Below, in pieces: positions 6,959-17,776 of a stretch of 26,355 nt of DNA; positions within the stretch are counted from its first letter, which is position 1, and every line of letters starts with the position of its first letter. The stretch spans positions 1 to 26,355 of the forward strand of contig JARYMM010000050.1 in the NCBI GenBank assembly GCA_029907105.1. Direction: 5' to 3'. Both the position numbers and the translations under genes were made by a program. The notes under the pieces were generated by a model. The model searched no databases, was not told the DNA's origin, and saw nothing but the letters and a program-made list of their open reading frames with translations. This DNA is from Anaerolineae bacterium. Its GTDB lineage: Bacteria > Chloroflexota > Anaerolineae > UBA3071.

Positions 6959-9900
6959 TCACCGGGGGCGGCTCAATACCCAGATGTATTCGTAGCCTTC
7001 CACCAGCAACTCCTGGCCCGAAAAGGCAATCGGCTCCGGCACATTGGCGCTGGCGAACACCGTGTACACCCCTTCATCCAACTCCGCCGACCAGGTGTCG
7101 CCTGGCTTCAGGATGGCCGACTCGTCGCCGAAGGAAAGGGTCATCGGCCCCTGCAGGTTGTTGGTCACGCGCACGAGGGCCTTATCGCCAAGAGAGAGCG
7201 GCTCGATCTGAGGACGGGGCAGCATCCGTTCCCCGCCCTTTCCGGGCGTTGACGTCGGCTTCAGGGGGACTTCTTCCTGGCGCAGGGAAAGCTGATAGAC
7301 CTTGCGTTCATTGGGCAGGGCCAGCCACAGGTAGCCCTGTCGGTCAAAGGCCAGAATCGGGTAGTACGGGAAGGCTCCGATGCCCAGGCTGCCCTCTCGC
7401 AGCAGTTCACCGCTGAAGTTCAAACGGTACCAGGTGCCAAAGGTGTTCACCGCCCACAATCCATCGGGAGCCCAGGCCAGCGCCTCGGCACTGCCAAAGA
7501 TGGGCGCATGGAAGGTCTGCAGGGATGCGCCATCGGCGCTGAACCTCAGCAGGAACTCACCTCTATACTCCCACACCGCGCCATCGGCCGGATCCCGGGC
7601 TTGAACAGCGGTGATGCCCCGAGGCTGCGGAAAAGACTCCAACACCGTGCCCGTCGGGTCCAGCCGCACAACCCGGTTGCCCGGATAATCGCTCAACGTC
7701 AGAAGCAGCGTCGCACCGTCCCAGGCCAGACCCCGGATGGGGTTCGTGAAGGTGATCGGGAAAGAGGCCAGCGGCGTGCCAATGCGGTCCAGTTGATACA
7801 GCCGCTGCTGCTGCCCATCGGCCACCCAGAGGGTATCGCCGGCCACGGCCAGGGCGGCGGGATCGGGGCCGGGGGCGAAGAACTCGCTCACCACGGCTTC
7901 GGGGACGAAGATGAATCGGCTGGAAGGCAGGCCCACCGCGGTCGGCGAGGCAGCCGCTGCTGTGGGCACGGCTTCCGGCGTAGGAGTCGGCGTGGCTGGC
8001 TGAGGCGTGGGTTGGGGCGAGCGCGTAGGGGCAGCCGTTTCCGTGGAGGTCGGCAGCAACAGCCCCGCCAGGTCAATAGCCGGCGCGCCGGGAACCTGTA
8101 GGCGCAGCTCGTCGGCCTCTGAAGGAACCAGCCAGGCCAGAGTCAGCTCCGGCCACTGGCCATCGAAGGATGGGATATCTACGTCACCCTGATGAGAGAA
8201 GCTGACCCCTTCAGAGGTGCTCTTGACTTCGTACACCAGTTGCAGGCCGGGGGGCTTGAGGCGAGACATGATGATTTTGCCTTCCACCTGGCCGACGGCG
8301 TACTCTTCGGGCATAGGGGTCGCGCTGATCCGGATTCCGCTCGGAGCGTACACCTGTCCCCGGTTGTCCACTATGGAGATGTCTTCCAGGTTCAGAATGG
8401 CTCCCGCCGTCGGATTGTTGAGCCCCAGTTCTACGACCACGAAGACCCGGCCGATGCCTGCGATATGCTGGAGCGGCGGCTGTGCGCCGGATTGGCCGGG
8501 GCGTTTTTCTTCCAGGAAATACGCCCGCCGCGCCGAGGACACCCTGGCCTGCCAATCGCTGCCCGACGAACGAGCATGTGCCTCGGCCTTTGCCAGGGCC
8601 ACGTTCAGCCTGTATACCGCCAACTCCCCGGCGAGAGTGTCCCTGCCAATGGCCCAGAGATATCCATCGCCCCAGGCCAGGCCCTCGATCTGGTAGACCG
8701 GCGAAGGAAACGAGGCCAATTCCCTGCCCTGGGCGTCCAGCAGGGCGAGCACCGAGGGCGAAGGGAATTCGTGGTAGGCGACCCACAGACAGGAGCCATC
8801 CCACTCCAGGCCCAGGACGTTCTTGGGATAAGCGAAAGTGCTCAGAATACCCCCTGTGGCATCCAGGCGATACACATGGTACTGGTTCGCATACCACAGC
8901 GCCTGGCCGTCCCACGATAGATCGTTGGTGATGTCGCCACCGAACACCTGCGCCGGCGATTGGAAAGAGCTGAGCGTTTTCGGCTCCCGTCCCTCAAACC
9001 GGAAGCGGTAAATGAAGCCGTGGTTGGTTGTGAAAAGCCAGAAGCCGGTGCCGTCCCAGGTCAGACCTTGCGGCGTCACCTCGGGGGCCTGGAAGGCATC
9101 CAGGAGCGTGCCCGAGGGATCAACCTGGAAGAGGGTTCCCGAATTGTCGGCCAACCACAGGTGTGCCCCATCCCAGGCGATTCCCTCTGCCAGATGGCCG
9201 GGGGCTGCGAAGCGCTGCACGATGGAAATCCAGGCCACGGTAGGAGTTGGGGTGGCCGTTGGCCTGGCCATTGTTGTGGGTGTCATCGTCGGTGTGAAAC
9301 GTGAGAGGGGAGACGCAGCGATGATCTCTGCTGACGTTGGCGCGGGCGTGAGCAGGGACGCCATCTGACGGGTCAGGGTCGGTGGCACTGCTTCGGAACG
9401 AGGTCGTATCCCGAACCACCACAGGAGCACCAGCGCGGCGACGATCAAGAGCAGGGCAACGACAAGCGCTGGCCGCAGAGGCCGGGGCAGCAGGCGAGGC
9501 GCGGGAGGCGGCGTTGGGGGGCGTTCTGGCCCTGCAGGCGGCGTCGGCGGGCTTTCCGGCTGGCCCCCGGCCTGTAACACCGCCTCGACCGTCTCGGCAA
9601 GCCTCCCCAGGTGCTTCTCCAGGGGTGGGGTCAGCGCGTCCAGCCAGTGGATGGGCTTGATGTAATACCCCAGCTCCTTGGAGGGCTGCACATCTTCCAC
9701 ACGGAAGGGGATGACGGGGATGCCCCTGTCCACTGCCTCGCCCACTTCTCTGATCACCTGCCGTGACTTGTTGGCCCCGTCGGAGAAGACCAGGATGAAG
9801 ACGCGGCTTTTGTCAATCGCGTCAATGAGGGTGCTGGCCCAGGCTTCGCCGGGCAGCACATCCCGCGGGGCGATCCAGCAACGGATCTTCCTGTTTTCCA

Positions 9901-9970
9901 GGGTGGCACATACAGCGTCGGCGATCGCTTTATCTCGAGCCGAATAGCTGATGAACACGTCGTGTGCCAT
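6959..9970 (-). CDS. TIR domain - single TM - two extracytoplasmic beta-propeller-like repeat modules (membrane receptor-like TIR protein)
   Basis: 1003 aa. The N-terminal TIR_2-type domain reads HDVFISYSARD ... RCWIAPRD ... VFILVFSDGANKSRQVIREVGEA, and the conserved Glu is present. The TM helix is ALVVALLLIVAALVLLWWF (about aa 167-187, nt 9410-9472). Pro/Thr-rich linkers follow. Blade-like repeats carry G(L/I)(A/T)WDGxxLW (glutaminyl-cyclase-like propeller), once after the TM and again after a central Ig-like module (VFVVVELGLNNPTAG...IVDNRGQVY). Confidence 0.85.
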   Translation of the reverse strand: MAHDVFISYSARDKAIADAVCATLENRKIRCWIAPRDVLPGEAWASTLIDAIDKSRVFILVFSDGANKSRQVIREVGEAVDRGIPVIPFRVEDVQPSKELGYYIKPIHWLDALTPPLEKHLGRLAETVEAVLQAGGQPESPPTPPAGPERPPTPPPAPRLLPRPLRPALVVALLLIVAALVLLWWFGIRPRSEAVPPTLTRQMASLLTPAPTSAEIIAASPLSRFTPTMTPTTMARPTATPTPTVAWISIVQRFAAPGHLAEGIAWDGAHLWLADNSGTLFQVDPSGTLLDAFQAPEVTPQGLTWDGTGFWLFTTNHGFIYRFRFEGREPKTLSSFQSPAQVFGGDITNDLSWDGQALWYANQYHVYRLDATGGILSTFAYPKNVLGLEWDGSCLWVAYHEFPSPSVLALLDAQGRELASFPSPVYQIEGLAWGDGYLWAIGRDTLAGELAVYRLNVALAKAEAHARSSGSDWQARVSSARRAYFLEEKRPGQSGAQPPLQHIAGIGRVFVVVELGLNNPTAGAILNLEDISIVDNRGQVYAPSGIRISATPMPEEYAVGQVEGKIIMSRLKPPGLQLVYEVKSTSEGVSFSHQGDVDIPSFDGQWPELTLAWLVPSEADELRLQVPGAPAIDLAGLLLPTSTETAAPTRSPQPTPQPATPTPTPEAVPTAAAASPTAVGLPSSRFIFVPEAVVSEFFAPGPDPAALAVAGDTLWVADGQQQRLYQLDRIGTPLASFPITFTNPIRGLAWDGATLLLTLSDYPGNRVVRLDPTGTVLESFPQPRGITAVQARDPADGAVWEYRGEFLLRFSADGASLQTFHAPIFGSAEALAWAPDGLWAVNTFGTWYRLNFSGELLREGSLGIGAFPYYPILAFDRQGYLWLALPNERKVYQLSLRQEEVPLKPTSTPGKGGERMLPRPQIEPLSLGDKALVRVTNNLQGPMTLSFGDESAILKPGDTWSAELDEGVYTVFASANVPEPIAFSGQELLVEGYEYIWVLSRPR

Positions 9971-9983
9971 TGGGGATCATTTC

Positions 9984-12473
9984 CTATGCCTGCCGGCGGA
10001 TCTCCAACCCCACTTTGGCCAGGAACTCCGGTATCCGGCGCACCGTTTCTCGATCCCACTCCTTCACGTCGTCGGGGAGCGCCGACCAGGGCACCAGATA
10101 GGGGTTGGTTTTCCTGTACACGTCCCGCTTTTCACCCCGGGTCCAGCCGTCCAGCAGTCGCTCGGCCACCCAGCGCCCATGTTCCATCTCCGCCATGACC
10201 TCGACCTCGCTCTCCGTGAAGGTGATCGGCGAAACCTGGCCGCTGGCCACGCGGTGCACGGTGCAGCCGATCTGGCGCAGCTTCTCCGCCATGTGGTCGG
10301 CCTGTTGGCGGTTCGACTCCTTGAGGTTTTCCAGGAGGGCATTCCATTCGGCCAGCGAGGGGTCTTCGCTGGCCCGGCGGCCGGCCTGGAGCTGGCGGAA
10401 GGCCTCGTGAATGGCGCGGCCGAGGCTCTCGCGCAGCTCAGGCTCCAGCCTGGGGTTGCCCGAGCCGATGAAGGCGCGGACGGTCATGGCGTCGGCGGGC
10501 AAGCGCAGCAAGCGGCTGGAGGTATGCCAGTCCTCGTCGGCGAGCAGTTGGGCCACGGCGCGTCCGCTGCCCTCGATCACCGCCACGCGGGCCCCCAGGG
10601 CCAGCGCCAGCCGGTATTCGGCGGCGGCGATAGCGCCCCCGTTGATGCCCAGCAGCCTGACCTGCTCCGGTGAAATGCCGGAGGCGACGAGGTCAGTCCA
10701 GTATTGCAGCGCTTCCAGGGGGCTGAAATCGTGGCCGGTGGTGCGCCGGATCTCGCCGTAGCGCTCGTCCACGGTCACGCCCGCCGGGATCACCTGGGGG
10801 ATATAGCCGATAGTGCGGATGGCCGCAGGGTAGGCCTGCTGTACCTCGCCGGCCAGGCCGCTGATCCCGGCCATGGTGCCGCCGCAGATGAGCGTGCCCC
10901 GGAAGTCGCGGAAGCCTTCCCGCAGGAGCCGGCGGTAGGTTTGCATCTCCTGCTCCACGCTGGCATCGCAGCCGCCGCTCAGGATCACCACCGGGCCGGC
11001 CACCGCCGGGTGCCCGGGGGAAGCCAGCCGGCTCACCTGCTCCAGGACGGCAGGATGGGGAAACTTCACGCCCCATCCCAGCAGCAGCAGCCTGCGCGCC
11101 CATTCGTGTCCTGGCAGAGCCTCTTCGACGACGGAGAGCCTGTCCAGGGAGCGCAACGAGGTCTCGACCATCCACTCTTTTGTGCTGAGCCGGACCGCCC
11201 TGGCATAGGCGGTGAGGCTCTCGTAAGGCTTCCCCAGCAACAGGTAGAGCTTTCCCATGTCGTAGAAGGCCCAGGGCAGGTTCACGCCTACGTCGGCCTG
11301 GTCCCGGCAGCGCCGGATCGCCGCCTGGATGGCAGGGGTCAGCAGACGCACCACGGAAATATCTTTGCTCTCGACAATCTCGCATTCCAGATAGTTGCCA
11401 AAGGGATACGGGTCGGTGGGATCGAGTTCGAACGCCTGGCGGTAGTATTCTTTGGCCTTGCGGTCGTCAATCCCCTTCCACGTGCCGGCCAGGGAGGCCA
11501 GGGCGTCCGCATCTGTGCAGGGCGGCGCGCAGGCAGCCTCAAGGTAAGCCCGGCCTTGCCGGTATGGCGGGCTTTCCGGGTCCGCCCGATGCTGTTTGCA
11601 CAGGGCCACGCCGAGATCGCGCAGGATCGGCGGGTAGCCTGAAGGGACGTATGGACTGAGCACCTCTATGGCCTTCGGCCAGTCGCCCAGGGCGATGGCC
11701 AGCTTGCCGATACGGTGGGCCAGTTCGGCATTCTGTGGGTCGCAGGCCAGCACAGTCTCCAGCAAGGCCATCTCCTCCCGCATTTGCTCCTCGGACATAT
11801 AAGCGCCGTAGTTGGCGGCGTAGGTCTTGAGGCCGGCCTCGATGGCAGCGAAGGCATTGTCCACGCGCTCCAACATGGCGGCCAGGCCGGCGAACTCCCG
11901 TTGCCAGCGGGCCGGAACCGGAAACGGGCTTTTGTAGACCAGCCGGTGGTTGAAATCGGCCCAGGCATGCTCCAGGATCGTCCTGACCTGGATCTCGGCC
12001 TTCAGCCCGAGTACCTCTTGCGGGATCGCCACGTTTATATCCTTTGTCGGGAAGATGCCGGGCCTGAACTGGACGATGTAATGCACCGAGCGGTAGCCGA
12101 ATTCGGTGGGCTTCAGCCTTTGGGAGACGTCTATCGTGTTCGCCCGGTCCACGTCAAAATGCTGTTCGATGAAGGCGCAGATGGCCTTGACCTCCTCCGG
12201 CGTATGGGTGATGACACGTCCACCGCACAGGTCGGTGATCTGATTGACCGGGTCGCGGTACTTGGCCTTCTTACGCTGGATCTTCTCCGCAAAGCTGGCG
12301 ATGGACTTTGCCCGTGTCTGCACGATGGCTTCCGGTGCGTAGCGCCGGGCGGCTTGTTCGAGCACCTGGCGCAGGGTCTGGGCAAACGTCACATAGCGGG
12401 GCCGTGTGGCCCGGTATTTCTCGATCTGCTCGCAGGCCCATCGCAGATCCGCCTCTTGAGTTGAATCTGCCAA
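9984..12473 (-). CDS. RelA/SpoT-type nucleotide pyrophosphokinase (no HD hydrolase) - TPR-like region - SLOG/LOG-like Rossmann domain - RyR domain
   Basis: 829 aa.
- Synthetase motifs (nt about 11919-12356): TRAKSIASFAEKIQRK, DLCGGRVI, FGYRSVHYIV, EIQVRTILEHAWADFNH.
- Helical TPR-like repeats, aa about 235-470.
- SLOG-like motifs (nt about 10464-10997): VVILSGGCD, TLICGGTMAGISGLAG, LGINGGAIAAAEYRLALALGARVAVIEGSGR.
- C-terminal RyR-type repeat (nt about 9999-10436): AIHEAF...LKESNRQQADH...MAEMEHGRWVAERLLDGWTRGEKRD...NPYLVPWSALPDDVKEWDRETVRRIPEFL. Confidence 0.8.
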   Translation of the reverse strand: MADSTQEADLRWACEQIEKYRATRPRYVTFAQTLRQVLEQAARRYAPEAIVQTRAKSIASFAEKIQRKKAKYRDPVNQITDLCGGRVITHTPEEVKAICAFIEQHFDVDRANTIDVSQRLKPTEFGYRSVHYIVQFRPGIFPTKDINVAIPQEVLGLKAEIQVRTILEHAWADFNHRLVYKSPFPVPARWQREFAGLAAMLERVDNAFAAIEAGLKTYAANYGAYMSEEQMREEMALLETVLACDPQNAELAHRIGKLAIALGDWPKAIEVLSPYVPSGYPPILRDLGVALCKQHRADPESPPYRQGRAYLEAACAPPCTDADALASLAGTWKGIDDRKAKEYYRQAFELDPTDPYPFGNYLECEIVESKDISVVRLLTPAIQAAIRRCRDQADVGVNLPWAFYDMGKLYLLLGKPYESLTAYARAVRLSTKEWMVETSLRSLDRLSVVEEALPGHEWARRLLLLGWGVKFPHPAVLEQVSRLASPGHPAVAGPVVILSGGCDASVEQEMQTYRRLLREGFRDFRGTLICGGTMAGISGLAGEVQQAYPAAIRTIGYIPQVIPAGVTVDERYGEIRRTTGHDFSPLEALQYWTDLVASGISPEQVRLLGINGGAIAAAEYRLALALGARVAVIEGSGRAVAQLLADEDWHTSSRLLRLPADAMTVRAFIGSGNPRLEPELRESLGRAIHEAFRQLQAGRRASEDPSLAEWNALLENLKESNRQQADHMAEKLRQIGCTVHRVASGQVSPITFTESEVEVMAEMEHGRWVAERLLDGWTRGEKRDVYRKTNPYLVPWSALPDDVKEWDRETVRRIPEFLAKVGLEIRRQA

Positions 12474-12487
12474 GGCACACCTCCGTG

Positions 12488-12916
12488 CTAAGGCTGCCCA
12501 GGCTGCTGGCCGTAAGCCTGGGCGAAGGGCCGGAATTGCTCGACCAGGTCCATCCCCAGAAGGTCGTGAGGGGCGACCCAGGCGTAGTCCTCGTGTTCGC
12601 TGCTCAGGCGCACCTGGCCGGACTCCAGGCGGCCTTCCAGGATCAGATAGGCGACCTTACGCGTGGGCATCTCGGACTCCGCGGCCCCGGCCACCCGGTG
12701 CAGGGAGACCGTCAAACCTGTCTCCTCGGCCACCTCGCGCAGGAGCGCGGCGTCGAAATCCTCCCCAGCCTCCACCTTGCCGCCGGGGAACTCCCACTTG
12801 CCGGGATTGCCCTTCGAACTCGCCGACCGCCGCAGCAGCAGGCAGCGGTCGGCCTCATCGCGGATCACGACTTTGATAGACAGCGCAAACGGTTTGTCAG
12901 ACATGTAGCATTCCAT
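12488..12916 (-). CDS. Nudix (MutT-like) hydrolase
   Basis: 142 aa with a complete Nudix box, GGKVEAGEDFDAALLREVAEETGL (GX5EX7REUXEEXGU). An alternative ATG lies at 12904. Only 14 nt separate it from the downstream RelA/SpoT-SLOG-RyR gene. Confidence 0.9.
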   Translation of the reverse strand: MECYMSDKPFALSIKVVIRDEADRCLLLRRSASSKGNPGKWEFPGGKVEAGEDFDAALLREVAEETGLTVSLHRVAGAAESEMPTRKVAYLILEGRLESGQVRLSSEHEDYAWVAPHDLLGMDLVEQFRPFAQAYGQQPGQP

Positions 12917-12955
12917 GTAGTGAATTTGCCTTCTTTAGCGCTCCCGAATGCCTGC

Positions 12956-13002
12956 CCCTCACCCCTGTCCCTCTCCCATTGGGAGAGGGACAGGGGTGAG
13001 GG
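12956..13002. repeat. 47-nt near-perfect palindrome (23-nt arms) spanning the stop codon of the TIR-WD40 gene
   Basis: ccctcacccctgtccctctccca (12956-12978), then t, then tgggagagggacaggggtgaggg (12980-13002). The TGA stop (12959-12961) and the last roughly 14 codons (..PVPLPMGEGQG*) are encoded by the palindrome. It sits 40 nt upstream of the Nudix start. Confidence 0.85.
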
Positions 13003-15814
13003 CGGAAGGCGTGCACAGGTCTGGCAGATTGGGGCAGGTGGGACGGCAAGGCTCGTCACCGATGTACTGTTGCCACTCCTCCAGGGTCAGATTCCTGGGC
13101 AGACGGGCGCAGGCCTCGGCAATCACATCCTCCGGCCTCCACAACGACACCTGCACCGTGCCATCGCTGTGCCCCGAGGCCACCCATCGCCCATCAGGGC
13201 TGAAGGCTACGGCCTTTACCGTACCTCTGTGTTCCATACGGGCCATCTCCTGCCCGCTGGCTGCCTCCCACACCCGTGTTGTGCCATCTCTGCCTCCTGA
13301 CGCTACCCACGTCCCATCGGGGCTGAAGGCCACGCCTTCTGTCACATCCCTGTACTCCATCCGGGTCACCTCCTGACCGCTCGTGACCTCCGCTATGCGC
13401 ACGGTGTTGTCCCCCATCCCCAAGGCTACCGCCACCCACTTACCGTCAGGGCTGAGCGCCAGGTCATTTACATAACTCTCGTAGGCAATGCGGGTCACCT
13501 CCTGGCCGGATGCGGCGTCCCAAACCAGCACTGTGCCATGTTGGTCCCCAGAGACCACCCACCTTCCGTCGGGGGTGAAGGCCACGCCGCTTATCGGGCC
13601 ATCGTGCACCATCCGGGCCACCTCTCTTCCAGAAGCTATCTCCCGTACCCGCACTGTGTTGCCCAAACTCCCTAACCCTATCGCCAACCGCTGTCCGTCG
13701 GGGCTGAAAGCCATAGCCGTCACCTCATACCTGTCCTCCAGCCGAGCCACCTCCTGCCCGGTGGTCACTTCCCACACCCGTATCGTTCCCTCCCCGCTCC
13801 CCGAGGCCAGCCACTGGCCATCAGGGCTGAAAGCTATGGCTCTCACGTAGCTGTGCTCCATGCGGGCCACCTCCTGCCTGGTGGCCACCTCCCACAATCG
13901 CACCGTGCCATCCGCACTCCCCGAAGCCATCCATCGCCCATCGGGACTGAAGGCCAGAGTGCTGACCTCGCCCTGGTGTTCCATCCGGGCCACTTCCCAG
14001 ATGCGCACTCTGTTGTCCTCGCTGCCTGTCACCACCCGTCGCCCGTCGAGGCTGAACGCCACGGCGTTCACCGCCCCTCCGTGGAACATCCGGGCCACCT
14101 CCCGCCCGCCGGCCGCCTCCCACACTCGCGCCGTGCCATCTCTGCTCCCTGACAGCACCCATCTTCCATCAGGGCTGAAGATCACGGTTTCCACTCCACC
14201 GTCATGTCCCCTCGAGGCCACGATGCGCCCACTGTTTGCCTCCCACACGCGCATGGAGTAGTCCCAACTTCCTGAGGCCACCCACCTTCCGTCGGGGCTG
14301 AAGGCCACGGCGTTCACAGGCCCGCCGTGTACGACGCGGGCTATCTCCTGGTCGGTAGCCACCTCCCAGACCAGCGCGGCGTTATCTCCCCATCCTCCCA
14401 ATGCCACACGCTCGCCGTCGGGGCTGAAAGCCACCGTCCATACCCGTCCCCCGCGTTTCATCCGGGCTATCTCCTGCCCGGTGGCTGTCTCCCACACGAC
14501 GGCTCCGCCGTCATTTTCAAATGGCCGTTCATATCCTGACACCAGCCACCTTCCGTCGGGGCTGAAGGCCACGGCCGTGACCTCACCCTCGTGCAGCATC
14601 TTCGCCGTCTCCTGCCCGGTGGCAACCTCCCATATCCGTGCACTGTGGTCGCGGCTTCCAGAGGCTACCCACCTTCCGTCGGGGCTGAAAGCCACCGCTT
14701 CCACCGACCCTTCATGCGTGACACGGGCCACTTCCTGTCCGCTGGCGGCTTCCCACACCCGCATCGTGCCGTCCGCGCTTCCCGATGCTATGTGCTTTCC
14801 ATCGGGACTGATGGCCACGATGCGCACGGCCCCCTCATGCCTCATGCGAGCCACTTCTCGCCCCGTAGTCGCCTCCCATAGGCGCACCGTGGCATCCTCG
14901 CTCCCCGACACGGCCCACCGGCCGTCGGGGCTGAAGGCCACGGCATTGACCTTACCTTCATGCGCTGCCTGGGCCACCAGCGGAGGAAACAGGGCCAGCC
15001 CACGGTGCAGGACCTGGTCTCCTTCCAACGAAGGGAAGCGCCGCATGGACTCCGTAGCCAGCAGCATACTCCACAGCAGTCCGCTGCCCGTTTCCCCCCA
15101 TACCATCTGCGCCTGGGCCGCCAGTTGCCGGGCCATGGCCACCTGGCGCTGTTCTTGCGCCTGAGCCTGGGCCGTGGCCCGCACCTGGGCTTCCATTACC
15201 ACTGTGGCCTGGGCCATTTCGGCCTGGGCCTGCGCCGTGCTGCGGACCTGTGCTTCGGCCGCGGCAGTCGCCTCGGCGGCGGCTGCCTCCTGGCGCGCCT
15301 GGCCGGCCTCCAATGTCCGCTGGCCAGCATACCGGACCAGGCCGACAGAGATCAGGACGAAGGCCAGGACAAAGACAGCCGTCAGAAGGCGACGCCGAAA
15401 GCGGCGCTGTTCGTCGCGGCGCTTCAGCTCGTCAAAGCTCACGCCCAGCATGCCTGCCAGCAGCTTGAGCCTGGCGTTGGCCCTGCCGTCCCCCTGCCGG
15501 CGGGCATCAGCGGCCACGGGTTCCATCTGCCTGAGCGCCGGCGGAAAGCACTCGCGCTCGTCGCGGCTGTTGGGCTCGCCATCCACGATGAAGGCGAAAA
15601 CCCGCTCGCTGCGGCCCAGTTCGGCGAATGTCTCGATCTCCCGGTTTACCCACCTGGACCGCGCGGCACGCGGAGAACAGACCACGATCAGATAGCGCGA
15701 AGCGGCCAGGGCCTCTTCGATGGCTTTACCCAGGTCCGCGGAGGCGGGCAGCTCGTCGCGGTCGCGGAAGACGGGTTGGAAGCGCCTGGGAGCCAGATCC
15801 CCTGCCGGCGTCAC
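12959..15814 (-). CDS. TIR domain - single TM - coiled coil - 15 WD40 repeats. Coordinates use the first canonical start (GTG); the true N-terminus is probably upstream, near 15940
   Basis: 951 aa from the GTG at 15814.
- TIR core: RYLIVVCSPRAARSRWVNREIETF ... VFAFIVDGEP, with the conserved Glu present.
- The first TIR strand and helix (YWAFISYSSKDTAHAKWLHRAIETYGIP) are encoded in frame upstream of the GTG; I translated this by hand.
- A strongly basic segment (KRRDEQRRFRRR) precedes the TM helix LLTAVFVLAFVLISVGLV (nt about 15335-15391).
- An Ala/Gln-rich coiled coil follows.
- Then come 15 repeats of the type HxGxVxAVAFSPDGRWVASGSxDGTxRVWEVATGQEVARM. Confidence 0.9.
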   Translation of the reverse strand: MTPAGDLAPRRFQPVFRDRDELPASADLGKAIEEALAASRYLIVVCSPRAARSRWVNREIETFAELGRSERVFAFIVDGEPNSRDERECFPPALRQMEPVAADARRQGDGRANARLKLLAGMLGVSFDELKRRDEQRRFRRRLLTAVFVLAFVLISVGLVRYAGQRTLEAGQARQEAAAAEATAAAEAQVRSTAQAQAEMAQATVVMEAQVRATAQAQAQEQRQVAMARQLAAQAQMVWGETGSGLLWSMLLATESMRRFPSLEGDQVLHRGLALFPPLVAQAAHEGKVNAVAFSPDGRWAVSGSEDATVRLWEATTGREVARMRHEGAVRIVAISPDGKHIASGSADGTMRVWEAASGQEVARVTHEGSVEAVAFSPDGRWVASGSRDHSARIWEVATGQETAKMLHEGEVTAVAFSPDGRWLVSGYERPFENDGGAVVWETATGQEIARMKRGGRVWTVAFSPDGERVALGGWGDNAALVWEVATDQEIARVVHGGPVNAVAFSPDGRWVASGSWDYSMRVWEANSGRIVASRGHDGGVETVIFSPDGRWVLSGSRDGTARVWEAAGGREVARMFHGGAVNAVAFSLDGRRVVTGSEDNRVRIWEVARMEHQGEVSTLAFSPDGRWMASGSADGTVRLWEVATRQEVARMEHSYVRAIAFSPDGQWLASGSGEGTIRVWEVTTGQEVARLEDRYEVTAMAFSPDGQRLAIGLGSLGNTVRVREIASGREVARMVHDGPISGVAFTPDGRWVVSGDQHGTVLVWDAASGQEVTRIAYESYVNDLALSPDGKWVAVALGMGDNTVRIAEVTSGQEVTRMEYRDVTEGVAFSPDGTWVASGGRDGTTRVWEAASGQEMARMEHRGTVKAVAFSPDGRWVASGHSDGTVQVSLWRPEDVIAEACARLPRNLTLEEWQQYIGDEPCRPTCPNLPDLCTPSALTPVPLPMGEGQG
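13139..14962 (-). repeat. Intragenic tandem array of 15 WD40 units of about 126 bp (42 codons), with recurrent near-identical DNA blocks
   Basis: Strings such as tcggggctgaaggccacggc and ccatcagggctgaaggc recur at roughly 126-bp intervals on the plus strand. They encode the AFSPDG core of each blade. One unit is shortened (..RVRIWEVARME) and one is lengthened (GYERPFENDGGAVV). Confidence 0.85.
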
Positions 15815-15937
15815 ATGCCCGTGCTCTACCAGCTTGGCCGGGATGCCGTAGGTCTCGATGGCACGGTGCAGCCATTTGGCGTGGGCCGTATCTTTGCTGC
15901 TGTAGCTGATGAACGCCCAGTAACGGTATTCCTGAGG

Positions 15938-15955
15938 GATGGCTGCTTCCTCCTC
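15938..15955 (-). promoter_or_regulatory. Strong Shine-Dalgarno (GAGGAGG) plus an in-frame ATC, the candidate non-canonical start of the TIR-WD40 gene
   Basis: Minus strand: ACC GAG GAG GAA GCA GCC ATC CCT CAG GAA TAC CGT TAC TGG GCG TTC ATC AGC TAC AGC. GGAGG (15953-15949) is followed by an 8-nt spacer and then ATC (15940-15938). No ATG, GTG or TTG lies in frame between the TAA at 15982-15980 and the GTG at 15814. Confidence 0.4.
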
Positions 15956-15979
15956 GGTGAAAGCCTCCCCTGGGGGCCT

Positions 15980-17776
15980 TTAGTTTAGCCGATATACCTG
16001 CAACCCCGCCCGCGCCAGAAGGCGCGGCAACTCGCGGACGGTGTGGCGGTCTTTCTCCTTTTCCGATGCGGGCAACTCGTCCCACGGTACCAGGTCGGGA
16101 CTGGTCCTCCTTTCCAGGTCCTTGGGCCCTGGGGCATAGGTCCAGCCGGCACGCCGCCGCTCCTCGACGAAGCGCTGGTGTTCCATCTCGGCCATCCGCT
16201 CGACTTCCTCCGCCGTGAACTGGAACCGCTCCGCCTCCCAATCGGTCAAAGGGGCGATGGCGCAGCCAACGGCCCTCAGTTTCACGCCGATGTGGTCTGC
16301 CTGACGCCGGTTGGACTCCTTGAGGCCCTCCGGCAGTTCGTCCCAGGGCACCATCGAGGGGTTGGACTCGGGGGTCTGGCCCTGCTCCGCCTGATGGCGC
16401 ACGTACTCTTCGTGGATGGCCCGCGCCAGCATCTCGTGCGTGCCGCCGAGCAGCAACTCCGGCCGGCAGGTGCGATCCAGCAGGCCAAAAGCGTGCAGGT
16501 TAGCAAAGGCACCGCCTTCGCCCTCCGCCCGGCGCAGCAGCGTGGCCAGCCCTGCCTCGTCGCTCATGCGCACGACGATGGGAATCGCCCGCCCTCGAAG
16601 CTTTTGCAGCAGCGTCAGGCCGGCGGTCAGGCCGGCGGAATCGTCGCCCAGACAGATGTAGATGGCAGTCACGTCGCTACAGCCCTGAGGGTCGAAAAGG
16701 AACTCTGCCCGCTGATACTCCGGCCAGCGGATGTCCATCTGACGGGGGATCAGTTCGCAGACCTGCGCAAGCTGGGGGTAGCGCAGGCCCAGCGTTTGCA
16801 CTTTGCGTTCGGCTTCGCGGTCCACGATGGTAATGCGCAGCCGTGTATCTGCTGTGCCCTGTCGCTCCCGCCAATGGCGCGCGGCGCGCACGACCAGACT
16901 CTGCCCCATGCGTCCCAGCCCCACCACCAGCAGGTGCGGTGGGGTGGCCGGGGCCGGCCCTGCTTCGTCAAAGGGCGGATATTCCTCCAGCAGGGCGCGG
17001 GCCCCCAGCCCGTAGACGTTGAAGAACTCCAGCCGGAAGGCGCCGCTATCCTCCAGCTCCCGCTCCCGAAGCAGGTCGCACAGTTGGGGGTCCACCAGGT
17101 GGACGAAGCGGGTCAGAGGCTCCTCGCGGCCGGCGGCCAGTTGGCGGGCGTGGACGGCGATCTCGGCGTTGACGCCGTCATCCCCGCCGGCCGCGACCAG
17201 GTATCTGGCCGCCTGGACCCCGGCGCGGTGCAACAGGTGCGGGTCCGTCGCGTCGCCGATCAAGACCATCGCCCCCTGGTCGCGACATGGCCCCAGCAGG
17301 TGGTCGTCCTCGTTCTGTTCGATGACCACGACCTGCTCGCCCCGGGCGAGAAACCCTTTGGCCAGCAGGAAGCCCTTGCGACCCAGCCCGCAAATCACCA
17401 CGTGATCGCGGATGAAGCGCAGGCGCAGCGACTGGAACTGCTCCGAGAAAAGGACGGTCAGGGCCCGCACGGCGGTATAGGCGGCCACGGTCGGGGCCAG
17501 GAGCCGCGCCACCTCCAGTTCCCAGCTTTTGGGTCCGGGGAGCGAGCCAGACTCCAGCGTGAACAGTTGCAGGGCCAGGTAGAAGAGATCCCAGGGCGAG
17601 CGGGTCTCCTGCCGCGCCGCAAAGAGCCTGGCGAAGCCCAGGTAGCCCAGAACCGGCGTGACCAGCCACAGCCCGCCGATCACGCCCCACTGGATGTCAT
17701 GCCATCGGTGTCGCCCCTGTTCCCGCCAGAACGTCTTCAGGCGGTTCCACCACTTCAGCCCGCCCGGGTTGTTCAT
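15980..17776 (-). CDS. Membrane protein: 2-TM channel-like N-terminus - two TrkA-N (RCK-type NAD-binding Rossmann) domains - C-terminal RyR domain
   Basis: 598 aa.
- Hydrophobic helices: WGVIGGLWLVTPVLGYLGFARLF and ARLLAPTVAAYTAVRALTVLF. They flank a short helix and loop, WDLFYLALQLFTLESGSLPG.
- Rossmann GxGxxG motifs: VVICGLGRKGFLLAKGFLARGEQVVVIE and LLVVGLGRMGQSLV.
- RyR-type repeat (nt about 15992-16435), clearly paralogous to the C-terminus of the 829-aa protein: AIHEEY...LKESNRRQADH...MAEMEHQRFVEERRRAGWTYAPGPKD...SPDLVPWDELPASEKEKDRHTVRELPRLL. Confidence 0.8.
   Translation of the reverse strand: MNNPGGLKWWNRLKTFWREQGRHRWHDIQWGVIGGLWLVTPVLGYLGFARLFAARQETRSPWDLFYLALQLFTLESGSLPGPKSWELEVARLLAPTVAAYTAVRALTVLFSEQFQSLRLRFIRDHVVICGLGRKGFLLAKGFLARGEQVVVIEQNEDDHLLGPCRDQGAMVLIGDATDPHLLHRAGVQAARYLVAAGGDDGVNAEIAVHARQLAAGREEPLTRFVHLVDPQLCDLLRERELEDSGAFRLEFFNVYGLGARALLEEYPPFDEAGPAPATPPHLLVVGLGRMGQSLVVRAARHWRERQGTADTRLRITIVDREAERKVQTLGLRYPQLAQVCELIPRQMDIRWPEYQRAEFLFDPQGCSDVTAIYICLGDDSAGLTAGLTLLQKLRGRAIPIVVRMSDEAGLATLLRRAEGEGGAFANLHAFGLLDRTCRPELLLGGTHEMLARAIHEEYVRHQAEQGQTPESNPSMVPWDELPEGLKESNRRQADHIGVKLRAVGCAIAPLTDWEAERFQFTAEEVERMAEMEHQRFVEERRRAGWTYAPGPKDLERRTSPDLVPWDELPASEKEKDRHTVRELPRLLARAGLQVYRLN

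Follow-up and report, generated by a model that had tools for sequence, protein, structure and literature searches.

The window analysed here is a 26,355-nucleotide stretch of an Anaerolineae genome (contig JARYMM010000050.1 of assembly GCA_029907105.1), and our subject is the second gene of a five-gene operon on its minus strand, which encodes a TIR domain, a transmembrane (TM) segment with a coiled coil, and WD40 repeats. The correct annotation of this TIR-WD40 frame is that of a complete TIR-TM-WD40 gene whose ATG has been deleted and whose product can be made only from an ATC codon. Alignment with the one syntenic orthologue gives good support to a lineage-specific, in-frame loss of 15 bp that held the ATG, and the gene is probably either made at a very low level or recently silenced. 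We regard it as an evenly balanced proposition that weak initiation at the ATC yields the complete protein of 993 amino acids (aa) at a low level.

Automatic gene callers will start this frame at the GTG at position 15814, and the TIR domain that they report will be missing the initial strand and helix. The locus also illustrates neatly, in nature, that a short deletion can strongly reduce expression of an immune enzyme, probably a toxic one, and yet leave the gene standing. Near-cognate starts, and the downshift or loss of start codons, are already known; the present case is a new instance, in a TIR-TM-WD40 gene.

Junction of the RyR and TIR-WD40 genes

All features of the window described below lie on the minus strand, and residues of the TIR protein are counted from the ATC as residue 1. 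The upstream open reading frame (ORF) encodes a TrkA_N/RyR membrane protein (Pfam TrkA_N, E=1.2e-22; RyR, E=7.9e-16) whose translation ends in ...GLQVYRLN before the TAA at 15982-15980. Past this TAA the same frame reads RPPGEAFTEEEAAIPQEYRYWAFISYSSKDTAHAKWLHRAIETYGIPAKLVEHGH, then the GTG at 15814-15812, and stays open until the stop at 12961-12959. None of the three frames offers an ATG, GTG or TTG from the TAA up to the Trp codon of the WAFISYS motif. A GAGGAGG Shine-Dalgarno sequence is separated by 8 nt (15948-15941) from an in-frame ATC (15940-15938), which is the only near-cognate codon upstream of the betaA strand to have a Shine-Dalgarno site. The features of the junction are given below, where L001 denotes the orthologous contig and A1 its DNA alignment with the window.

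15980 to 17776, minus strand: TrkA_N/RyR membrane gene, 598 aa, TAA at 15982-15980 (ORF list, translation)
15941 to 15979, minus strand: 39-nt spacer from the TAA to the ATC, holding the Shine-Dalgarno sequence; non-coding in the orthologue L001 (alignment A1)
15949 to 15955, minus strand: Shine-Dalgarno GAGGAGG, inherited from the former ATG start (sequence, alignment A1)
15949 to 15950, minus strand: junction of the 15-bp in-frame deletion, where L001 has GACCCATCCATGCCT (pairwise DNA alignment A1)
15938 to 15940, minus strand: ATC, proposed near-cognate initiation codon; an internal Ile codon in L001 (sequence, alignment A1)
12959 to 15940, minus strand: TIR - TM/coiled coil - WD40 gene from the ATC, 993 aa plus stop (translation; Pfam WD40, TIR_2)
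15905 to 15916, minus strand: betaA codons, AFIS of WAFISYS (AlphaFold2 strand residues 9-12; motif in 117 of 120 homologues)
15812 to 15814, minus strand: GTG, first canonical start in frame; an internal Val codon, residue 43 (ORF list, Pfam, model)

A first-pass annotation of this DNA had singled out the TAA, the open frame behind it, a start-free stretch, the GAGGAGG and the ATC, all of which are present at these positions. Its observation that no in-frame ATG, GTG or TTG precedes the GTG at 15814 was borne out on reading the sequence, as was its expectation of automatic truncation: the ORF list, limited to ATG, GTG and TTG, does begin the TIR-WD40 frame at the GTG, with 951 aa.

Origin of the missing start codon

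The best match among the homologues (P0003) sits on contig L001 (ENA ERZ24794672), the one syntenic orthologue. Its gene order is that of the window, namely TrkA_N/RyR, TIR-WD40, Nudix, RelA_SpoT-TPR-LSDAT-RyR and TIR, the window genes being assigned by Pfam. In a pairwise DNA alignment of the junction (A1), window and L001 both read ...TATCGGCTAAACTAA, carry the TAA at the same position, continue through a spacer of about 85% identity and arrive at CGAGGAG. L001 then has GACCCATCCATGCCT followed by GAAGCACCCATCCCTCAGGAATACCGTTACTGGG, where the window passes directly to GAAGCAGCCATCCCTCAGGAATACCGTTACTGGG. The L001 protein begins MPEAPIPQEYRYW, with its ATG 8 nt behind GAGGAGG and the ATC 15 nt downstream of that ATG; in the window, the ATC takes the place of the ATG at identical spacing. 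The flanks of the deletion are near-identical on both sides, and its boundary is ambiguous by 2 nt (GA microhomology). The DNA comparison thus demonstrates both the deletion and the retention of the Shine-Dalgarno sequence with its spacing. Since the deletion is as long as the interval between the old ATG and the downstream Ile codon, the ATC stands exactly 8 nt behind that Shine-Dalgarno sequence.

On this comparison the state of the window is clearly the derived one, since the N-terminal length of the L001 protein is typical of the family and a further locus, L042 (JGI Ga0247727), has an ATGA start. In L042 a RyR gene again lies upstream; the TIR gene starts MSDARQSEYRYW at an ATGA stop/start overlap, and the two genes are in different frames. 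A 15-bp insertion in L001, possibly by tandem duplication (by eye, 11 of 15 positions agree between the two 15-mers of L001), was considered and rejected, the L001 N-terminus being of typical length and that of the window short and start-less.

Further copies of the junction proved scarce. A degenerate DNA pattern fitting the deleted and the undeleted junction had no match in metagenome or genome contigs, and a DNA search of 40 relatives returned just homologues of the RyR gene, none of them then followed by this TIR gene. With the RyR protein, 29 genome loci were retrieved, and a scan of the 15 in which most of the protein is covered showed no WAFISY motif nearby; a protein-seeded metagenome scan added only L042 and the distant L043. 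As to what the first-pass annotation had asked of orthologous loci, the TAA is conserved in L001 and an ATG start is present, although 15 nt upstream of the ATC rather than at it, while a fusion of the two genes was seen in none of the loci inspected.

Homologue starts and the TIR fold

A homologue search with residues 1-260 of the extended ORF returned 3304 homologues, of which the best 120 are considered here. In 117 of these 120 the called start lies 6-284 residues upstream of the Trp in W[AG]F[IVL][STG][YH], most often about 10-12 residues. A start at the ATC would leave 7 residues before the conserved Trp, inside the range of the homologues (minimum 6). The 42 codons upstream of GTG 15814 closely match the homologues, whereas the residue at the GTG position is variable among them (V, T, K or E), and no convincing Shine-Dalgarno site precedes the GTG.

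The three exceptions among the 120 are of different kinds. P0105 (L044 2500-5952), which begins MHRAIETYG, was entertained as a second truncated homologue and rejected, its start being a miscalled internal TTG, the Leu of WLHRAIETYG. Its real ORF begins about 165 codons earlier, with an ATG, and carries an N-terminal zinc-ribbon extension of a kind present in many homologues; P0105 is hence a case of a gene caller truncating a member of this TIR family, with loss of betaA. P0079 begins within the domain without an initiator Met, on a contig of at most 2.6 kb, and was probably cut at the contig end. P0108 is simply without the motif.

The segment before the GTG supplies the beginning of the domain. 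On the extended frame, Pfam TIR_2 scores 55.5 bits (cut-off 28), its alignment beginning with the Phe of FISYS at model position 2, and ThsB_TIR scores 40.3 bits (cut-off 21.2); for the GTG-started product, the TIR_2 alignment begins only at model position 24. An AlphaFold2 model, built on a 27-sequence alignment (A2), reached a mean predicted local distance difference test (pLDDT) score of 88.1 and a predicted template modelling (pTM) score of 0.82. Its secondary structure places betaA at residues 9-12 (AFIS), alphaA at 15-30 and a further helix at 35-39, the first six residues being disordered. The top Foldseek matches in the PDB were all TIR proteins: SPARTA TIR-APAZ, C. elegans TIR-1, SARM1, TLR1/2/15, RUN1, L7, AbTir and ThsB. 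According to the model, the domain has the TIR fold, and the pre-GTG segment, which carries betaA, alphaA and the next helix, is required for the whole of it. The first-pass statement that this stretch encodes betaA and alphaA therefore agrees with both the TIR_2 alignment and the model.

All 27 sequences of A2 have Glu101 unchanged. This residue belongs to the WVNxE motif (WVNREIE), where alphaC begins, and by its position there it would correspond to the catalytic Glu of TIRs that cleave nicotinamide adenine dinucleotide (NAD), such as E642 of SARM1 and E100 of RUN1. With TIR proteins that act as NADases or generate signals (ThsB, SPARTA TIR-APAZ, AbTir and the SARM1 type), the present protein shares the TIR_2 and ThsB_TIR matches, the Foldseek matches and the invariant Glu. 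It differs in its architecture, TIR - TM - coiled coil - about 15 WD40 repeats, and in its operon partners, which are RyR, Nudix and RelA_SpoT-SLOG genes instead of the ThsA or Argonaute of Thoeris and SPARTA.

Possible initiation of translation at the ATC

Across the genome, the first ATGs of long ORFs show a strong excess of GGAG 6-9 nt upstream, a spacing that the 8 nt of the TIR site fits, and the Shine-Dalgarno sequence of the TIR-WD40 gene is the strongest in the operon. The minimum free energy (MFE) of RNA around the start was not distinct from that of shuffled sequences, either in the window (z = -0.54) or in L001 (z = +0.12).

A comparison with infC suggests that starts of this form are in use in the lineage. 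In loci L047 and L048, from the same family, infC reads TGA-GGT-ACT-AGC-ATC-GCC-AGA-...-RINEGIRAREVRVIG, with no canonical start and with GTGAGG 7 nt before the ATC, and in L056 and L061 the ATC is likewise the sole option. All four genes have an in-frame stop just upstream, no ATG, GTG or TTG, and an ATC behind a Shine-Dalgarno sequence of the GAGG type. An ATT stands behind a Shine-Dalgarno sequence in L050, L052, L054 and L058, with another candidate codon in the open frame of L050 and L058. At the homologous place, the genome to which the window belongs reads GTGAGGTACTAGCA-ATA (contig C106, about 7389-7440; locus L045 1459-1510; L046); this infC frame is also open to upstream ATGs, which gene callers would probably pick. 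Across these genomes the sequences of infC indicate its use of AUH codons (ATC, ATT or ATA) in the lineage, and infC appears to start at such non-canonical codons across the class. Since the infC genes of relatives leave only ATC, or ATT/ATA, behind the Shine-Dalgarno sequence, comparative inference points to AUH initiation in that position as normal for the ribosomes of this lineage. The AUH starts of infC across the Anaerolineae also bear on gene calling in that class.

Known systems resemble the TIR-WD40 start in part. Autoregulation through an AUU start is familiar from E. coli infC, and an AUC start from Myxococcus dsg. The infC starts share with TIR-WD40 a Shine-Dalgarno sequence at normal spacing, then AUH, and no canonical start; the infC start, however, is conserved across genomes with a known regulatory logic (IF3 discrimination), whereas the ATC of TIR-WD40 is lineage-specific and born of a deletion. 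In start-codon downshifts, natural or selected, such as those of Listeria rsbW and rnhC and of E. coli, AUH likewise replaces a canonical start behind an unchanged ribosome-binding site. Those are point mutations with measured effects, while here a 15-bp deletion moves a pre-existing Ile codon into the start position. Measurements of all 64 codons in E. coli place AUC initiation at 0.02-3% of AUG, with N-terminal Met incorporated (bioRxiv 10.1101/063800). In Listeria, the ATC start of rnhC was experimentally confirmed, and changing the ATG of rsbW to ATA or ATT lowered the protein level without abolishing it (PMC13068326).

Integrity of the reading frame

The 993 codons of the TIR-WD40 gene contain no stop and no frameshift, and the conserved C-terminal module (…EACARLPRNLTLEEWQQYIGDEPCRPTCP…) is present and resembles the C-terminus of a WD40 protein in L005. 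Hallmarks of a pseudogene, in the form of further lesions or a relaxed ratio of non-synonymous to synonymous divergence (dN/dS), were looked for across these 993 codons and none was found. The ratios, calculated by the Nei-Gojobori method in a pairwise comparison with L001, were as follows.

TIR part of TIR-WD40: dN/dS 0.26
WD40 part of TIR-WD40: dN/dS 0.22
RyR gene: dN/dS 0.19
Nudix: dN/dS 0.22
RelA_SpoT-SLOG: dN/dS 0.20

Judged by these sequence comparisons, long-standing decay of the TIR-WD40 gene is excluded.

Divergence from L001 is uneven along the locus. Nucleotide identity lies at 0.84-0.94 in the RyR domain and a large part of the TIR domain (16350-16080 and 15920-15380) but at about 0.70 elsewhere in the RyR gene. 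An identical run at 15880-15825 comprises about 55 nt without a synonymous change, and across the initial 42 TIR codons dS amounts to 0.17, whereas neighbouring genes have 0.8-1.2. The low-divergence tract could reflect recombination or gene conversion, or constraint at the nucleotide level. The TrkA_N/RyR orthologue of L001 is itself split over three frames (tblastn frames 1, 2 and 3; L001 about 1844-1890 and 2160-2175), with a 5-nt gap near its end, which may indicate either a decaying gene or assembly errors. The damaged member thus differs between the two loci, being the RyR gene in L001 and the TIR start in the window.

Weighing the explanations

Under the explanation that we favour, the TIR-WD40 gene formerly began with an ATG some nine codons ahead of the conserved YRYWAFISYS strand, as is still the case in the orthologue and the homologues, and a 15-bp in-frame deletion, equivalent to GACCCATCCATGCCT of the orthologue, took out that ATG while GAGGAGG survived. 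Ribosomes may still load at GAGGAGG, possibly aided by termination at the RyR TAA 39 nt upstream, and would begin translation at the ATC with formylmethionine, with roughly one percent of the efficiency of an ATG. The outcome would be a low level of the whole 993-aa TIR-TM-WD40 protein, made from its own cistron of the five-gene operon and not as an extension of the RyR protein. Initiation at the ATC had been among the options of the first-pass annotation, and it emerges as the best-supported route to a complete TIR domain, given the inherited Shine-Dalgarno sequence, the spacing and the AUH starts of infC, although the codon is not kept as a start in the orthologue. From this combination we infer that the ATC does serve as a start, and that a low level of the protein is either tolerated or of advantage. 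Several points weigh against it. The case comes from a single metagenome-assembled genome, and the dN/dS values stem from one pairwise comparison at a dS of about 0.5-1, with no power to reveal function lost recently. The ATC start is not shared by the sole orthologue, L001, which begins at ATG and has the ATC as an internal Ile codon, and searches for closer relatives found none. We estimate, moreover, that chance would place an ATC at usable spacing in roughly 1 of 5-10 in-frame deletions that remove an ATG, which makes the exact spacing weak evidence; selection for the placement of the ATC was accordingly dropped as a claim, since it is not demonstrable where chance alone suffices. A stronger version, in which the ATC is a setting that holds a toxic, NAD-consuming TIR receptor under an IF3-discriminated start as in infC, we consider improbable. 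If it were true, healthy cells would contain almost none of the TIR protein, and its translation would increase once initiation fidelity or the activity of IF3 declines, with phage takeover or translation stress as examples of triggers.

The rivals to weak ATC initiation differ in what they ask of the locus. A young start-loss pseudogene, in which the deletion silenced TIR-WD40, translation from the ATC is negligible and the frame is intact only through recency, is a possibility that we hold tentatively and below the favoured reading: the canonical start, present in the orthologue and in 117 of the 120 homologues, is gone, and operons of the immune type often erode, as the two frameshifts in the neighbouring RyR gene of L001 illustrate. 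Start-loss pseudogenes of defence genes likewise concern a costly or toxic immune-type gene without its ATG. The window gene nevertheless has no second lesion in about 3 kb, its dN/dS is not relaxed and resembles the 0.19-0.27 of the three well-aligned neighbouring genes, and the operon's strongest Shine-Dalgarno sequence stands at optimal spacing before a usable near-cognate codon that infC of this lineage uses as a start. It is unlikely that the deletion is an assembly artefact or a minority strain variant and that the population sequence keeps the 15 bases and the ATG. The contig does belong to a single metagenome-assembled genome, and near-identical sequence was not found in other assemblies; but assemblers and base callers do not typically produce a clean in-frame gap of 15 bp between near-identical flanks, and the contig is collinear with L001 over all parts of the five genes present there. 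The first-pass option of a nonsense mutation or sequencing error survives in one respect only, in that a lesion exists, the 15-bp deletion that removed the ATG; the TAA itself, being conserved in L001, is no nonsense mutation. A start at GTG 15814, which would leave the WD40 receptor a TIR domain that is truncated or vestigial, has in its favour that this is the first canonical start in frame, yet it is very unlikely, as the codon has no convincing Shine-Dalgarno site, is a variable internal position in homologues, follows 42 codons that closely match them, and would yield a product without betaA, alphaA and the next helix of the flavodoxin-like fold. Least credible of all, to the point of being nearly negligible, is readthrough of the TAA into an ancestral or conditional RyR-TIR-WD40 fusion of about 1600 aa, which the first-pass annotation had raised on seeing both ORFs in one frame with a single TAA between them. 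The shared frame is a 1-in-3 coincidence that a 15-bp deletion preserves, and the conserved TAA of L001 is followed by the gene's own ATG. The genes are separate and in different frames in L042; their order differs or their strands oppose in L002, L010-L012 and L005, and a fused RyR-TIR gene occurs in none of the inspected loci. The first 10 spacer codons differ from L001 at 5 positions, 4 non-synonymous and 1 synonymous, which is not coding-like when set against the TIR dN/dS of 0.26. Among 44 tRNAs found by Aragorn in the genome none has a TTA anticodon, the only stop-codon reader being tRNA-Sec, and bacterial UAA readthrough is far rarer than near-cognate AUH initiation behind a good Shine-Dalgarno sequence. 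The fusion is thus not supported.

Operon and genomic neighbourhood

The five-gene operon spans 6959-17776 of the window and comprises TrkA_N/RyR, TIR-WD40, Nudix, RelA_SpoT-TPR-LSDAT-RyR (LSDAT also given as SLOG) and a TIR_2 protein of 1003 aa. It may be described as an operon of the nucleotide-signalling or conflict type; PMC7159879 discusses operons in which TIR, SLOG and Nudix domains occur together. The last gene, encoding the 1003-aa TIR_2 protein, is 40% identical to its L001 counterpart at a dN/dS of 0.38 and is far more diverged than the other four.

TIR-WD40 genes recur near TrkA_N/RyR genes in L002, L010, L011, L012 and L042, in varying order and orientation, and a second TIR-WD40 paralogue or a small TIR_2 gene is often alongside. 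This recurrence suggests that TrkA_N/RyR and TIR-WD40 are functionally linked, independent of adjacency or fusion.

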